Below, one piece after another: positions 40,187 to 44,440 of a stretch of 64,000 nt of DNA (position 1 is its first letter; each line of letters begins with the position of its first letter). The stretch is taken from contig CAVRHW010000021.1 of the NCBI GenBank assembly GCA_963721085.1, forward strand, positions 65,580 to 129,579, in the 5' to 3' direction. Below the pieces are notes generated by a model that was given only the letters and a program-made list of their open reading frames with translations, was not told where the DNA came from and did no database searches. Origin of the DNA: an uncultured Gammaproteobacteria bacterium. Its GTDB lineage: Bacteria; Pseudomonadota; Gammaproteobacteria; SZUA-229. A program made the translations under genes and the position numbers.

Positions 40187-40413
40187 TTGCCGGCAAGTTA
40201 CTTTCTCTTTGCGTGGCCAAAGGAAAGTAACCAAAAAAAAGGCCACCCCTCGACCCAGCCGCTCATAAAAAAACATGAGCGGTTCCCTCGTCAGCCACAA
40301 TCGACAGGGCCGTTGCAGAACTCGCGAGCAAACAACACTCGCTCAGACAACTGCAGCGGAAAACTCCCTGTCGATTGTGGCTTCCTCGGCTGTGGCGAAG
40401 GGGATGGTAAAAC
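40187..40413 (+). repeat. structured repeat, module A copy 1 (unclassified family)
   Basis: Hairpin GTTACTTTC.CTTTG/CAAAGGAAAGTAAC (40197-40231). Hairpin CCGCTCAT-A7-ATGAGCGG (40259-40282). GGTTCCC linker. 16-bp perfect stem GCCACAATCGACAGGG/CCCTGTCGATTGTGGC (40294-40309 / 40366-40381). Ends in AAGGGGATGGTAAAAC. Homologous in inverted orientation to 44215-44440. Confidence 0.75.
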
Positions 40414-40458
40414 AAAAAAATAGCTTGGAGTAATGTTGATTTTGAATATTCTCAACAA

Positions 40459-41602
40459 GTGCACAAAATGAATAATATTGATTTATCAAAATTTGAAGAG
40501 TCAATCATAAAAACAGGGTTTGATCTCGAATATCATGTTTCTGAAATATTGCGAAAAAATAAATGGACAGTAATAAATAACAAATACTATGTTGATGATG
40601 TCCAGCAAACCGTTCGAGAAATTGATTTAATTGCGTATAAAACAGTAACTGTTGAATCAATTGTTGTTTATACGGTTTTAATTATAAGTTGTAAGAAGAA
40701 TGAAGAGCATATATGGGGATTATTAGCAAAAGATAAGGATGTAAAAGACCCTAATACAAATTGGCATCCTATTAGCCACTGGTCTAATAATAAAACACTC
40801 GAATATATGTTCAATGAAATTAACTGGAGAGATGAGTATTTAGATATAACCAAAACCCACAATCTGTATAAAAAGCTTATCGAGCCACAGAGTCATATAT
40901 TTGCATTTCAAGAGATGCACAAAGAAAAGGAACCCCAAACCATAAATCGATTTTTTCCTCGATAAGCTCGCTAATGAAGGCGGAAGGTTATGAGATTGAA
41001 TCCCTTTCTAAACGAAAAAAATACGATTGTTTGTACAATTTTAACTTAATCTCTATTGCCGAGACAGAATTAGTAAAGTTATTTTTCGATGACAATGGAG
41101 TAACGGCAAGTATTGTAGATGATGATAAATATATTGGAAGCTATATTATAAATAACAATGATGTGCAATCTCGCATTCATTTTATAAATAGTAATAAGTT
41201 TAAAGACATTGTCTGCGATTACAATAACCTTCATAAGGTTAATCGTGAGTTTTGTATAAAGTTAATAGATAAATTGATGAAGACGCTATCAAGGTAGAAT
41301 CTAAAATAAATCTTTATAAAGACGTGTTTATAAAAAAAATAAGATGGTCGCTCTATAGGTTTATTTCTTCCGATTCTAGTATTGGGTTAAAAAGTGAAGA
41401 CTACAGAATTCACTACAATAAAAAGGATGATGTCCTGGAAATTAGCTTCCCTTCTTTGTTTGGCGATCCAACGGAAGGCGGCTTAATATCAGGCTTAAAT
41501 GACAACAGTAAGCTTAATAAAATTGTGAGAAAAGCGCTAAAAGAAATATATAGATATGATGGTGATTATGAATTTGTAAAAGAAGATGATGTTCCATTTT
41601 GA
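40459..41602 (+). pseudogene. low-GC gene for a PD-(D/E)xK-like (restriction-endonuclease fold) protein, split over three frames by two apparent 1-nt deletions
   Basis: ORFs 40459..40965, 40974..41297 and 41324..41602 are contiguous. Their upstream in-frame extensions overlap the preceding ORF ends (breaks near 40925-40965 and 41265-41297). The N-terminal part has E...REIDLIAYK...LIISCKK, resembling a D...(E/S)xK nuclease core. Confidence 0.55.
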
Positions 41603-41761
41603 TGAAAATGGTTGGCCCCTTTAGTTTTAGCAATAATAACGATTTCAATCGCCACATGAGGCTGTACTAATGAAGGAGATCTGGCCGTTATTTGTAGCGG
41701 CGCTATCCGGTGGATTAATAAAATAATAGGGGACAGACCACAATTAATTTCTCATAATAAT

Positions 41762-41829
41762 AAAGGGGTCGGTGACAAATGAGAATTATTTACTTATTGG
41801 ATTGCTTATTACTTGTCACCGACCCCTTT
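41762..41829 (+). repeat. 68-bp palindromic repeat, copy C1
   Basis: 17-bp perfect arms AAAGGGGTCGGTGACAA (41762-41778) / TTGTCACCGACCCCTTT (41813-41829) around a 34-nt AT-rich loop. Confidence 0.85.
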
Positions 41830-41845
41830 AATTGTAAACTATCAT

Positions 41846-42420
41846 ATGCTCACGACTATCAAAGTAATTGCTATATTCGTAATTGTCATTATACAAATCA
41901 CTTGTCTCAGTGGTTGTGCGGATTTATTTATGGGGATTTTGGCTCCTTCAGTCCAGACTAACGAAAAAAACCAGGGGGCTATACAATTCCCACCTGTTGC
42001 GGTTTTGAGAATTCCAGATCTGTAATTACCTTGGTCAGGGAGCATGAATTTGCACAAGGTGCGGTTAACTACAAGGTCGCGCAAAATTATAAAATAATAG
42101 GTTTGCTTAAGCCTGGCAGTTATATGCAATGGGAGGTGCGCCCTGGGACGATGACTCTCAGTTACAGACCAGTGATAGTCAAAACATGCTACGTAAATAA
42201 AGGACCGTGTATTACAAAAATTGAGGATATTTTTCAAAGGGACACAAAGTACGCACCGGGAAGATTTAGCTTTAAGGTGGAAAAAGGGAAGCATTATTAT
42301 TTGAAATTCGTTCCAGATATGACTTTGTTCGGAGATGTGCCCGGTCTCGCTACAATCAAGATAGTGAAAGCGGCTGACTTGTCCGGGCTTAAACCTCCGA
42401 TATATATGAAGTTGAATTAA
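41846..42420 (+). CDS. small lipoprotein (DUF2846-like by pattern), interrupted by an apparent 1-nt deletion near 42005-42030
   Basis: Lipobox ITCLSGC is in ORF 41813..42025 (ATG at 41846). The beta-rich remainder is in ORF 42031..42420, whose frame is open back to 41962. Confidence 0.55.
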
Positions 42421-42428
42421 TCGCAAAT

Positions 42429-42492
42429 AAAAGGGGTCGGTGACAAATGAGAATTATTTACTTATTAGATTGCTTATCACTTGTCACCGACC
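42429..42492 (+). repeat. palindromic repeat, copy C2 (right arm partly degenerate)
   Basis: AAAAGGGGTCGGTGACAA ... TTGTCACCGACC. Nearly identical to C1, including the loop sequence. Confidence 0.8.
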
Positions 42493-42601
42493 ACATTAAT
42501 TCCTAAGAATTATAGATTCACGTCGCCCACACACATGATAAAGCAATTAGGCTTCGCAATATCGATTGTTATACCAGTGCTCGCAGAATTAAAGGGGACG
42601 C

Positions 42602-43006
42602 CCATTAGCCAGTAGTTGTCAACAGGCAATATAAAACAATTCGTACTTTAAAATACGAAACGGATAAACCACGGTAATCATGAAACGCGTCCAAAACTAT
42701 TCAAAATAGTGGTTGACGAAACTGATTCGCACCAGACACCCATCAGGATCAAGGCTATACAAAAAATATTGATGGAATCAAGTGTAGCCCCTGCTTCAAT
42801 ATGAAGCCCAGAAGATCGTTGGTACCCAGGCGTGTCCAAATGTGTTTATTACATTGGTAGTGGTTTATTTATCAACCAGTCTCCTCGTGGATCACGACTG
42901 AGGCGCATCAGACAACCGCAGTTGTTTAAAAGAATGATAGAGCATCCATTCGTAGGGATGGTTGTTAGCGAGTCCCCTTTATTGGCTTACTCTATCATTC
43001 AAGCTT
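42602..43006 (-). ncRNA. candidate guide (bridge/seek-type) RNA region in the 405-nt 3' non-coding end of the IS
   Basis: A long non-coding end lies downstream of the recombinase. An 11-bp perfect stem (42932-42942 / 42990-43000) encloses TAAAGGGGAC (minus strand, 42972-42981), which is identical to the target flank at 42590-42599. There are several further hairpins. Confidence 0.35.
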
Positions 43007-44020
43007 TTAGCGAAACAGTCGCTCATGTTGAAACGGTTCCTGTTTTCGAATCACATGGTAAGCCGCACGGGCCAGTTTATGAGCAAGGGCTTTTGTGGCT
43101 AAGGCGCCATTTCTTTGCGCGCGTTTACGCTGATAAAATTTATGTGCGGTTTTGTTGTGACGAATAATGCTATGTGCAGCTTCAACAAATGCCCAGGATA
43201 AATACTTATTGCCATTTTTATGGTTATTAGCGCCTTTCTTTTTGCCGTTACTGATGCGACTGCTGTCGACGCAGCGAGCATAAGAAGAAAAGTTGCCGAC
43301 TGATGGAAAACGATGAATATCGCCGACTTCCAGCATGATCGTCATGCCGAGGATTTTGCCGATGCCGTCAATGGTGAGTAAAGACAGGAACTCCGGCTTA
43401 AGTTTTACCTGATTTAAAACGGTGTTCTCCAGTTCATCCACCTGTTGGTTAAGCGCATGAATCATCATCAGGTTAGATTTAATGGCCATCTTGACGTGTT
43501 TGTCGTCAATCATATTAAGCAGCGAGAAATCGGCCTGTTTAATCGGTGTTGACGTTACATTCATCCCTGTTGTTCGCCAGATCTGGTTTTGAGCACTCAG
43601 CATGTGAGTGACACGGTGCCTGACCATCTGTAGACGTTTGCGCAGCAAATCTCTGACAGCACGTTCTTCTTTAGGATAGATATAGCCTGTTGGCAATATC
43701 CCAAGGCGCATCAAATGCGCCAGGTGAAAAGCATCAGAATAATCGTCCGTGTGTTTTATGCCATCATATTGTTTAACAGCAGCAGGGTTAACCAGCAGGG
43801 CATTGAATTGATGATCATCCAGGCCGTCCACGAGCCAATACCAGTTAAAGGTGGATTCGACAGCAACTCCGATTAGATCATCTTTGAACGGCTCTAGAGC
43901 AGAAATGATTTTGGGTAAATCATTGGGCAAGCGTTTTTGAAAAAGTATATTATCGTTATCATCAATAACAACAGGTACATTATTGGTTGAGTGAAGATCA
44001 ATAGCGCAGTAGAGTGACAT
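43007..44020 (-). CDS. IS110-family DEDD transposase/recombinase
   Basis: MSLYCAIDLHS ... AVESTFNWYW ... KHTDDYSDA (RuvC-like DEDD) plus the C-terminal IDGIG...SSYARCVDSSRISNGK...KNGNKYLSWAF module. AGGAGA lies 5 nt before the ATG at 44020. Confidence 0.9.
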   Translation of the reverse strand: MSLYCAIDLHSTNNVPVVIDDNDNILFQKRLPNDLPKIISALEPFKDDLIGVAVESTFNWYWLVDGLDDHQFNALLVNPAAVKQYDGIKHTDDYSDAFHLAHLMRLGILPTGYIYPKEERAVRDLLRKRLQMVRHRVTHMLSAQNQIWRTTGMNVTSTPIKQADFSLLNMIDDKHVKMAIKSNLMMIHALNQQVDELENTVLNQVKLKPEFLSLLTIDGIGKILGMTIMLEVGDIHRFPSVGNFSSYARCVDSSRISNGKKKGANNHKNGNKYLSWAFVEAAHSIIRHNKTAHKFYQRKRAQRNGALATKALAHKLARAAYHVIRKQEPFQHERLFR

Positions 44021-44112
44021 AGCCGTCTCCTGTAGTTTCTGGGTGTGTGGGAACAGCCAGATTAGCACTCCTGCAGGGGTGAGCTACAGGAGGCTGGCTA
44101 CATGATCTTCAT

Positions 44113-44440
44113 AGCGATTATTTTTTGACCAGTGAGGTTGGTCGAATTAAAGTGGTCAGAGTCCTTTTTCCTGGCTGCGGTTTATTTGTGTTTCTGAAGA
44201 TATGCGTTTTTACCACTCCCCTTACAGCTTGCCATGTCGCAGTGCTTCGGTAGCGGCAATCGGGCAGGACGCCCGATTGAGTCTCGTGCGCAGGACGCGC
44301 ATCGAGACGACGCGTTAGCGAAGTGCTGTGACATGGGAACCCCATGTGTTTTTTACATGGGGCAAGTTGTAGGGGCGTATTCCTTTGGTTACTTTCCTTG
44401 TACGAGCAAGGAAAGTAACTCGCCCGTGGGTGCGAGAACC
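44113..44440 (-). repeat. structured repeat: module B (44113-44232, IS-interrupted) plus module A copy 2 (44215-44440)
   Basis: 13-bp hairpin GTTACTTTCCTTG/CAAGGAAAGTAAC (44388-44419). Hairpin CCCCATGT/ACATGGGG (44340-44362). 17-bp stem at 44233-44249 / 44319-44335 enclosing two hairpins with AGGAC loops. The module B part is ~87% identical to 45454-45572. Confidence 0.8.

Follow-up and report, generated by a model that had tools for sequence, protein, structure and literature searches.

The window analyzed here, a 64-kb stretch of DNA from an uncultured gammaproteobacterium, carries two copies, in inverted orientation, of a structured element of ~235 nt. The locus reads, in order, uvrA, a major facilitator superfamily (MFS) transporter gene, ssb, copy 1 of the element (~40175-40425), 3.8 kb of low-GC DNA, copy 2 (~44205-44450), a hairpin terminator, and a peroxiredoxin gene on the minus strand. 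A sequence-only reading of the window had described two inverted elements that share unpaired blocks, and both are present at these positions with a mean column identity of 74% when aligned on the strand which that reading used. On the same strand, the blocks common to both copies are GTTACTTTC / AAGGAAAGTAACCAAA, CCCCT, GGTTCC, and AAGGGGA.TGGTAAAA. Between these blocks the helices differ in sequence from one copy to the other and remain complementary, and the two copies fold with z = -8.7 (copy 1) and -8.5 (copy 2) relative to dinucleotide shuffles, none of 200 shuffles being as good. The extent first proposed, ~225 nt, was too short, as an outer hairpin (P0) and a U-rich tail also belong to the element. 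No third copy was found within the window.

The first relative came from a BLAST search against plasmids, which identified a replicon of Aeromonas caviae where the same architecture lies downstream of thiH and is followed by low-GC DNA. Neither the element nor the island (the DNA between the copies) had a BLAST match in complete E. coli genomes or in phages. We combined the blocks common to both window copies and the A. caviae relative into a pattern for scanning genomes and recovered at least 120 related loci, all with the same plan, in beta- and gamma-proteobacteria and a few Desulfuromonadales; the expectation of further genomic copies was thereby borne out. Hosts among the matches listed are Pseudomonas, Aeromonas, Gallionellaceae, Thiobacillus, Silvimonas, Dyella, other Lysobacterales, and Pseudomaricurvus. 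A metagenome scan added 10 more family members, among which was no close relative of the window organism, and a pattern scan of viral contigs found nothing. Exact-protein look-ups of the window SSB and peroxiredoxin returned no record, which left no sister genome with or without the island for comparison.

The sequence-only reading had placed the element on the strand described above and held that G-T pairs favor neither strand; both points have to be revised. Copy 1 folds with -117.6 (to -120) kcal/mol on the minus strand versus -107.4 kcal/mol on the plus strand, and copy 2 with -137.8 kcal/mol (z = -12.3) on the plus strand versus -112.3 kcal/mol on the minus strand. Across the family, 46 of 47 distinct copies fold more stably on the complement of the strand first read, with a mean difference of -12.3 kcal/mol. 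The wobble pairs agree with this. At the third pair of helix P1 (helices are described below), 108 copies on the strand first read have C.A in 67 cases, T-A in 31, and G-C in 7, and a C.A there is a conserved U.G wobble on the opposite strand; a pair-count tool applied to the RNA strand gave UG:36, UA:20, GC:7, and GU:2. Similarly, the basal stem of P4 in copy 2 has three A.C/C.A positions and no G.T on the strand first read, and these become G.U on the RNA strand. Taken together, the fold energies and wobble pairs show that the structured molecule reads outward from the island, on the minus strand for copy 1 and on the plus strand for copy 2. The strand first read is the reverse complement of this molecule.

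On this strand, the elements follow the 5'-to-3' order of a U-rich tail, P2, P4, a GGAACC junction, P3, the return strand of P2, and a 3' domain (Table 1). P2 starts with CCCC and ends with GGGG, has an internal loop after four C-G pairs, and covaries across the family. P4 combines a covarying basal stem with an exchangeable interior. The type of interior seen in copy 1 also occurs in copies from Gallionellaceae, Silvimonas, and locus L006; in copy 2, both CAGGACG hairpins sit inside a 25-bp stem, and their 5-nt AGGAC loops lack the Y of an AYGGAY loop. The GGAACC junction is invariant, in part because the search pattern required it. Nearly all copies have a G+C-rich hairpin, P0, after P1; it falls inside the inverted-repeat boundary of pairs and is part of the element. 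We set the 3' end of each element by best energy density, a choice that favors paired P2 ends. An RNAalifold consensus of twelve full-length sequences, including copy 1, contains 43 pairs, 20 of them with double-sided changes. The pair counts do not draw on a MAFFT alignment of the complete excised elements, in which P2 and P3 were misaligned.

Table 1. Coordinates of the two elements, their parts, and features of the locus. Positions count from the first letter of the window, except in the last row, which refers to loci elsewhere in the family.
Feature	Position	Strand	Remarks
Copy 1, whole element	40175..40425	-	5' end near 40425, 3' end near 40175; nhmmer match 40191-40288, E = 1.5e-13
Copy 1, 5' U-rich tail UUUUUUUGUUUUACCAU	40404..40420	-	Most family members have a (UUUUGA)n-like tail before P2
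Copy 1, P2 5' strand CCCCUUCGCCACAGCCG	40387..40403	-	Closing helix of three-way junction; pairs with 40246-40261
Copy 1, P4 long variable arm	40294..40381	-	16-bp perfect basal stem; interior CUGAGCG...CGCGAGUUC, without AYGGAY loops
Copy 1, GGAACC junction and P3 hairpin	40259..40286	-	GGAACC at 40281-40286; U-rich P3 loop
Copy 1, P2 3' strand	40246..40261	-	GGGG at end
Copy 1, 3' pseudoknot-triplex domain	40197..40246	-	S1 UGGCC (40241-40245 region), L1 U8 (40232-40240), P1 40197-40231
Copy 1, P0 terminal hairpin (CUUGCCGGCAAG GCG)	40183..40197	-	Inside inverted-repeat boundary of pairs
Copy 2, whole element	44205..44450	+	nhmmer match 44425-44335, E = 2.2e-11
Copy 2, P2 5' strand CCCCUUACAGCUUGCC	44218..44233	+	Pairs with 44361-44375
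Copy 2, P4 arm	44234..44334	+	Two hairpins with CAGGACG loops, 44257-44279 and 44281-44308
Copy 2, GGGAACC junction, P3 hairpin, P2 3' strand	44335..44375	+	P3 44340-44362; P2 3' strand 44361-44375
Copy 2, pseudoknot-triplex domain	44376..44419	+	S1 CGUA 44376-44379, L1 UUCCUUU 44380-44386, P1 44387-44419
Copy 2, P0 hairpin (CUCGC CCGUGGGU GCGAG)	44419..44436	+
ssb	39486-39944	+	Terminator at 40001-40034
Foreign DNA between the 5' ends	40421..44204	.	29-45% GC versus >= 50% outside
Decayed open reading frames (ORFs), three consecutive	40459-41602	+	Different frames; 168, 107, and 92 aa; 29-31% GC; from ORF list
93-nt direct hairpin repeats	41762-41854 and 42430-42522		86% identical; GGGGTCGGTGACAA...TTGTCACCGACCCC, 25-28-bp arms
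DUF2846-like ORF between the 93-nt repeats	42031-42420		Pfam
IS110-family transposase	43007-44020	-	DEDD_Tnp_IS110 + Transposase_20 (Pfam)
Single-gene defense cargo: BstA, PDC-S33, PDC-S14	L063 938-1732, L019 1784-2843, L036 6039-6903

The 3' domain opens with S1, a segment of 4 to 6 nt after the GGGG of P2 that pairs with the loop of P1. In copy 1, the P1 loop GGCCA is complementary to S1 UGGCC over 5 bp, and in copy 2, S1 CGUA pairs with UACG of the P1 loop. The same relation holds beyond the window in sequences as different as UCGCC/GGCGA, UGCCC/GGGCA, and UUGGGC/GCCCAA, and a partner test of the pseudoknot gave 3.53 versus 2.82 +/- 0.08. Considered together, P1 and the pseudoknot are 85.9% paired, and their covariation is 0.214 versus 0.102 +/- 0.008 in shuffles (0 of 500 as high); controls in which the partner was slid gave at most 0.11. 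The compensatory helix changes that the sequence-only reading had reported between the two copies extend to family-wide covariation in P1, the pseudoknot, and P2.

S1 and P1 are separated by a run of pyrimidines, L1, which matches the purine arm of P1 in parallel orientation through U-A and C-G. In copy 2, L1 UUCCUUU matches AAGGAAA in the 3' arm of P1 in this way at 7 of 7 positions; further parallel examples are UUCUCUUU/AAGAGAAA and UUUUCUUU/AAAAGAAA. In this register, 296 of 498 variable positions fit, compared with 162 +/- 9 for shuffled partners. We rejected Watson-Crick pairing of L1 with the P1 arm, as antiparallel registers reach at most 420 matches even with G-U allowed, versus 545 for the parallel one. 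The four most variable positions exchange U-A for C-G (UA:34 / CG:26, UA:34 / CG:17, UA:30 / CG:17, and UA:36 / CG:2), and covariation in these triplex columns is 0.657 versus 0.300 +/- 0.027 (0 of 500 shuffles as high), with slid partners giving at most 0.19. The strand order is that of an H-type pseudoknot and, combined with the parallel covariation of L1 (U.A-U and C.G-C), indicates a major-groove triple helix. The A-rich linker that had been called unpaired is, on the opposite strand, the putative third strand of this helix.

At gathering level, an Rfam search of the window yielded four tRNAs alone and no match at either copy. With a relaxed threshold, copy 2 matched the TwoAYGGAY motif (RF01731) at 44225-44343 (+) with 37.4 bits and E = 2.5e-4, below the gathering score of 43, and copy 1 had no match even at E up to 10. 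The relatives are more informative: 16 related loci gave ten TwoAYGGAY matches of 45.6 to 60.2 bits, above the family threshold and all on the inferred RNA strand, some of them spanning the whole P2-P4 region. The sequence-only reading could assign the element to no known family, a view that these matches overturn. In addition, the gamma-proteobacterial Psychromonas ingrahamii seeds of the original Stockholm file carry the 3' flank GGAAC..GGCAC-UUUUU-GGUUACU...AAAAAGUAAC plus P0, and this flank (...CGGAACGGCACUUUUUGGUUACU...GAGAAAAAGUAACACGCCGUCAGGGCGGAAGACC), which lies outside the annotated motif, corresponds to the GGAAC / S1 / L1 / P1 / P0 domain. The matches of the relatives and the seed flanks lead us to place the window elements in the beta/gamma-proteobacterial branch of the TwoAYGGAY family, with copy 2 probably a divergent member and copy 1 a probable relative with a different arm. 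The motif was published in 2010 by Weinberg et al. (PMC2864571) in a description of a few lines that gives no function and rates it as probably RNA. CsrA binding was predicted for it in 2015 from its two loops (PMC4333381), and Rfam puts it in the CsrB clan (CL00106); a 2025 preprint still calls it "relatively unexplored", its function unknown. Our limited literature search, which is no proof of novelty, turned up no earlier account of the pseudoknot-triplex domain, of copies arranged in pairs, or of the cargo described below.

A structured RNA is the reading of these elements best supported by the strand asymmetry, by the covariation of the tertiary structure, and by the overlap with a motif that had been rated "probably RNA". 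We tentatively favor, stopping short of calling it probable, a model in which each copy encodes, as a gene or a transcribed module, a structured RNA of ~235 nt, the two forming a stable, protein-sequestering small RNA (sRNA) pair with an insertion-prone spacer. Transcription would proceed away from the island, on the minus strand for copy 1 and on the plus strand for copy 2. The 5' domain of the RNAs is a three-way junction of P2 (CCCC...GGGG), P3 preceded by GGAACC, and the long exchangeable P4; in their 3' domain, S1 pairs with the P1 loop and L1 would lie in the major groove of P1, forming 6 to 9 U.A-U or C+.G-C triples, with P0 following. The triple-helix pseudoknot and P0 could form a rigid cap near the 3' end that protects the RNA from 3' exonucleases, and the junction and P4 would display GGA in loops, including the two CAGGACG hairpins of copy 2. 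A GGA-recognizing protein, most plausibly a CsrA/RsmA dimer, would be bound there, which would make the molecule a stable protein-sequestering sRNA whose exchangeable arm, P4, carries the protein-binding module. The head-to-head pair is the normal genomic unit of the family, and the spacer between the 5' ends would tolerate or attract insertions; that of the window has acquired an IS110 element and a low-GC cassette, now decayed.

The distribution of GGA motifs is consistent with this model. Cores contain on average 4.86 GGA on the RNA strand versus 1.17 on the complement (77 copies versus 1), and about three GGA per RNA are unpaired in the minimum free energy fold; the window copies have three GGA each. 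CsrA/RsmA dimers bind A(N)GGA sites in loops, which the CAGGACG hairpins of copy 2 resemble. No csrA gene was found within the window.

Several observations weigh against the sRNA model. As a sequence signature, the G.U evidence cannot tell RNA from single-stranded DNA (ssDNA), since G.T would look alike. In copy 1, L1 (U8) fits the P1 purines at 6 of 8 triplex positions, and P1 has a bulged A. The search pattern fixed AAAGTMACCAAA, CCCC, and GGTTCC, so that the invariance of these blocks and of the first three triplex positions is by construction. The shuffle controls ignore phylogenetic relatedness; the slid-partner controls, which retain it, are safer and agree. No conserved promoter or terminator was found across the family, and no sigma-70-like site lies upstream of copy 1 on the minus strand. 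A sigma-70-like TTGACC-17-TAAAGT (44125-44153, +) points into copy 2 and may belong to the neighboring IS110 element. A U run follows P0 in some lineages only (e.g., Gallionellaceae). In Gallionellaceae and Psychromonas, moreover, a terminator-like hairpin with a U run directly precedes the element on the RNA strand, an unusual position if the element is a gene of its own. Copy 1 has no AYGGAY hairpins, and its three GGA motifs are partly paired. Finally, the sRNA model alone explains neither the pairing of copies nor the cargo between them. Separately, we noticed by eye a sigma-54-like TGG-N9-TTGC in the U-rich tail and set it aside as too degenerate to claim.

A hidden Markov model of the conserved module recovered 165 copies in 121 sources. 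When adjacent copies were compared in the RNA sense (n = 44), 38 were head-to-head, 5 tail-to-tail, 1 tandem, and 0 in the other tandem orientation. Twenty-nine of the 38 head-to-head pairs lie 168 to 758 bp apart (mode ~500), without cargo and with a variable spacer of 40 to 150 bp, and the two arms of one pair are usually of different arm types. Pairs are not the sole arrangement: single arms exist (e.g., L006), and at L089 (6547-7693), in a Pseudomonas-like genome, four arms ordered -,+,-,+ form a doublet array with a TwoAYGGAY match in each. The tail repeat adjoining the arm has expanded to microsatellites in some relatives, namely (CCAAAGA)n, (CAAAGG)n, an 11-mer, and (CAACAG)n (L006 ~3830-3930, the spacers of L029 and L034, L026, and L081). 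No neighboring gene (reverse transcriptase, integrase, TnpB, or RAYT) is conserved at ~125 copies, and the sole recurrent neighboring "ORFs" are spurious frames through the element itself.

Such an arrangement could also be expected of a selfish or architectural repeat of the REPIN/BIME kind, whose doublets would be kept for DNA-level reasons (mobilization in trans, nucleoid proteins) and whose RNA structure would be a by-product. The elements are purely intergenic, occur in every kind of intergenic region, are multi-copy in some genomes, and form short-spacer inverted doublets and, at L089, an array; an IS110-family element also sits at the edge of copy 2, and the IS110 family targets REP-like repeats. 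However, the diverged paralogous arms keep their helices, pseudoknot, and parallel triplex register on one strand only, which a repeat acting as double-stranded DNA has no reason to preserve. With no RAYT-like gene linked and conservation spanning beta- and gamma-proteobacteria, we consider a REPIN/BIME-like origin very unlikely.

The remaining nine head-to-head pairs, including that of the window, are 1.05 to 4.2 kb apart and enclose 0.6 to 3.8 kb of low-GC DNA. The enclosed DNA is 6 to 15 GC points below the flanks, the arms being host-like in GC, and eight loci besides the window show this succession of arm, low-GC cargo, and arm. In Gallionellaceae, pairs with cargo hold one gene each, always a different one and in either orientation. 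These include a BstA homologue (E = 1.5e-19; its N terminus is KilA-N-like by eye), PDC-S33 with a RelA_SpoT domain (E = 3e-104), and PDC-S14 with DUF4357 (E = 5e-102); other Gallionellaceae cargo gave weak HEPN and DUF2971 matches and one nuclease-like protein. At seven Gallionellaceae loci (L007, L011, L013, L019, L073, L092, and L095), a block of ~28 nt, AATGTACCGGAGTCGAATTGTTTTGAC, is conserved upstream of the arm in the RNA sense and adjoins a REP-like GTGGGCA...TGCCCAC hairpin and a U run at one cargo edge. This block may be a cargo promoter, a recombination site, or part of the RNA.

The cargo raises the question of whether the arms act in cis, as boundary modules of a cassette slot. 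The triple-helix pseudoknot and P0 of each arm would then serve as a 3'-end protector and/or terminator for whichever cargo gene occupies the slot and as an insulator of neighboring host genes, and the conserved arms would also supply homology for cassette swaps between strains. Since the arms face outward in inverted orientation, any transcript that exits the spacer, in whichever direction, ends in a sense arm. This reading would account for cargo genes in both orientations within the nine filled pairs, for the nature of that cargo (BstA, PDC-S33, PDC-S14, and the RelA_SpoT and DUF4357 domains), and for the contrast in GC between host-like arms and their contents; it would also suit the convergence of both window arms on the host genes ssb and peroxiredoxin and the U run after P0 in Gallionellaceae. 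Against it, 29 of the 38 pairs are empty and some arms are single, and flanking genes show no orientation bias (62 convergent, 50 tandem). Moreover, the terminator-like hairpin of Gallionellaceae and Psychromonas lies between slot and arm, so that cargo transcripts may stop before reaching the arm, and termination needs neither an elaborate three-way junction nor GGA loops. We therefore regard boundary modules as unlikely. Also quite doubtful, in our estimation, is a broader proposal in which the arm pair would be an integron-independent docking platform for exchangeable single-gene anti-phage cassettes. Its outward triplex-capped RNAs (or ssDNA forms) would define the slot, service the cassette by 3'-end protection, insulation, and possibly regulation through a GGA-binding protein, and give recombination handles.

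Small, low-GC, single-gene cassettes are likewise a feature of integrons, and the combination of conserved structure, variable sequence, and strand-specific folding resembles integron attC sites. The arms could accordingly work as folded ssDNA, either forming the ends of a foldback-type mobile unit that is not autonomous or serving as attC-like sites recognized by their structure, with cassettes inserted by an enzyme encoded elsewhere. The inverted arms of pairs share their outermost 18 to 40 bp (P0 and the start of P1), much as terminal inverted repeats would; GCGAAGC-type mini-hairpins, which are very stable in DNA, occur in the P3 and P1 loops; and DNA tolerates G.T wobble too. Nevertheless, no recombinase, transposase, or other gene is conserved beside the arms at ~125 copies, no target-site duplications were found flanking pairs, and site-specific insertion would leave direct rather than inverted flanking sites. 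The locus is also kept across genera, a metagenome-assembled genome of Arenicellales having the same MFS-ssb-element synteny as the window, and across Pseudomonas species. Vertical inheritance is indicated by this, the position after ssb being inherited and not recent. No known ssDNA site resembles a three-way junction of 235 nt that includes a pseudoknot and a triplex, and the discoverers of the motif with which the family overlaps considered that motif probably RNA. The sequence-only reading had offered a structured RNA and an ssDNA recombination site as options; a functional structured nucleic acid, most likely RNA, has stood, and for the ssDNA site, which we find quite unlikely, no specific support emerged.

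Three known systems were rejected as direct matches. An integron attC site does not agree with inverted copies, a 235-nt junction and pseudoknot, and the lack of an integrase ORF between ssb and the peroxiredoxin gene. An IS110 bridge RNA, which is encoded in the noncoding end upstream of the transposase gene and on its strand, does not agree with a structured strand that in copy 2 is opposite to the transposase, nor with ~120 other loci at which no transposase is linked. A retron msr-msd, a noncoding RNA that directly precedes a reverse transcriptase gene, was dismissed because no reverse transcriptase is present among the neighboring ORFs of the window or of related loci.

Within the island of the window, the three decayed ORFs look like one decayed gene, in which a PD-(D/E)xK-like motif (D...EIDLIAYK) can be made out by eye; they gave no Pfam or PADLOC match above threshold, and homology of the window decayed ORF to the cargo of L103 was not significant. 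The two 93-nt repeats may be a small element resembling a miniature inverted-repeat transposable element or a terminator, and they probably correspond to another module of the sequence-only reading. The 5' noncoding region of the IS110-family transposase gene (interval 43007-44206) abuts the 5' tail of copy 2. Two genes upstream of the island are split into overlapping ORFs: uvrA (34826-37138 and 36684-37676, minus strand; span 34826-37676) and the MFS transporter gene (37877-38503 and 38025-39269, plus strand). These splits are frameshifts that arose either by pseudogenization or by assembly or sequencing errors. Farther upstream, a Thr-Tyr-Gly-Thr tRNA cluster (thrU-tyrU-glyT-thrT-like, 17145-18029) precedes a ribosomal-protein/secY/rpoA region (28.9-33.3 kb), which indicates an ordinary gamma-proteobacterial chromosomal context.

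Returning to the structured-RNA reading, the sequence evidence suggests that the window elements are two divergent head-to-head members of a TwoAYGGAY superfamily, with a previously undescribed triplex-pseudoknot domain, that bracket a decayed foreign insert. For the orphan TwoAYGGAY motif, this means that the proteobacterial members are predicted RNAs of ~235 nt with a defined strand and a modular variable arm, in which GGA-loop and other types are carried on one scaffold. The spacer of head-to-head pairs repeatedly holds foreign DNA, including BstA, PDC-S33, and PDC-S14 defense genes, and if the pairs serve cassettes, they would represent a new hotspot architecture for defense genes. Should the triplex stabilize the RNA, bacteria would have in it a counterpart to the ENE elements of eukaryotes and viruses. 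The analysis also provides an improved annotation model for elements that Rfam misses (copy 1) or scores below threshold (copy 2).

The 3' domain can be compared with known triple-helix pseudoknots. The pseudoknots of telomerase RNA and of the SAM-II/SAM-V and preQ1-II riboswitches share with the family the order S1 - pyrimidine loop - stem - S1' - stem', and the family loop, aligned in parallel with the purine strand, shows U.A-U / C.G-C covariation. Triples of the U.A-U / C+.G-C type form in the SAM-II riboswitch and in the pseudoknot of telomerase RNA, where the first loop occupies the major groove of the second stem alongside the purine strand. The family differs in having no ligand pocket or template, in the length of its putative triplex (6 to 9 triples on a stem of 13 to 15 bp), and in C.G-C triples that would need protonation. 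To our knowledge, the familiar major-groove triplexes of bacteria are small riboswitch pseudoknots only, and the one proposed here is apparently among the longest inferred by covariation in a bacterial RNA. Triple helices of the ENE/MALAT1 type, which stabilize RNAs, likewise lie close to the 3' end; the putative triplex of the family is followed by another hairpin and is not at the very 3' end. Reviews listed by the literature search are PMC7583470 and PMC13541005.

Like the CsrB/RsmY/RsmZ sponges, the family elements have GGA motifs enriched on one strand and displayed in hairpin loops. Known CsrA sponges carry 7 to 22 GGA motifs, whereas the family elements have 3 to 5, and neither a Rho-independent terminator nor a GacA-type upstream site, as in CsrB-type sponges, was identified for the family. 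We know of no CsrA sponge described with a triple-helix pseudoknot. The likeness to BIMEs and REPINs lies in intergenic inverted doublets with non-identical arms, a variable spacer, occasional arrays, and a role as insertion-sequence targets; the family arms are ~235 nt rather than 20 to 40 nt long, have a strand-specific higher-order structure, and are not linked to a RAYT. With attC, the family has in common structure kept over sequence, strand-specific folding, and small low-GC single-gene (defense) cassettes. However, an attC site is an imperfect hairpin of 57 to 141 nt, and the family copies are inverted rather than direct and form a three-way junction of ~235 nt with a pseudoknot. With TwoAYGGAY itself, the family has in common the strand and a long closing stem around two hairpins whose terminal loops contain GGA. 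The published motif covers the region of the variable arm and closing stem only, and the elements described here extend it by the GGAACC junction, P3, the pseudoknot-triplex domain, P0, head-to-head pairing, and cargo, all of which lie outside it.

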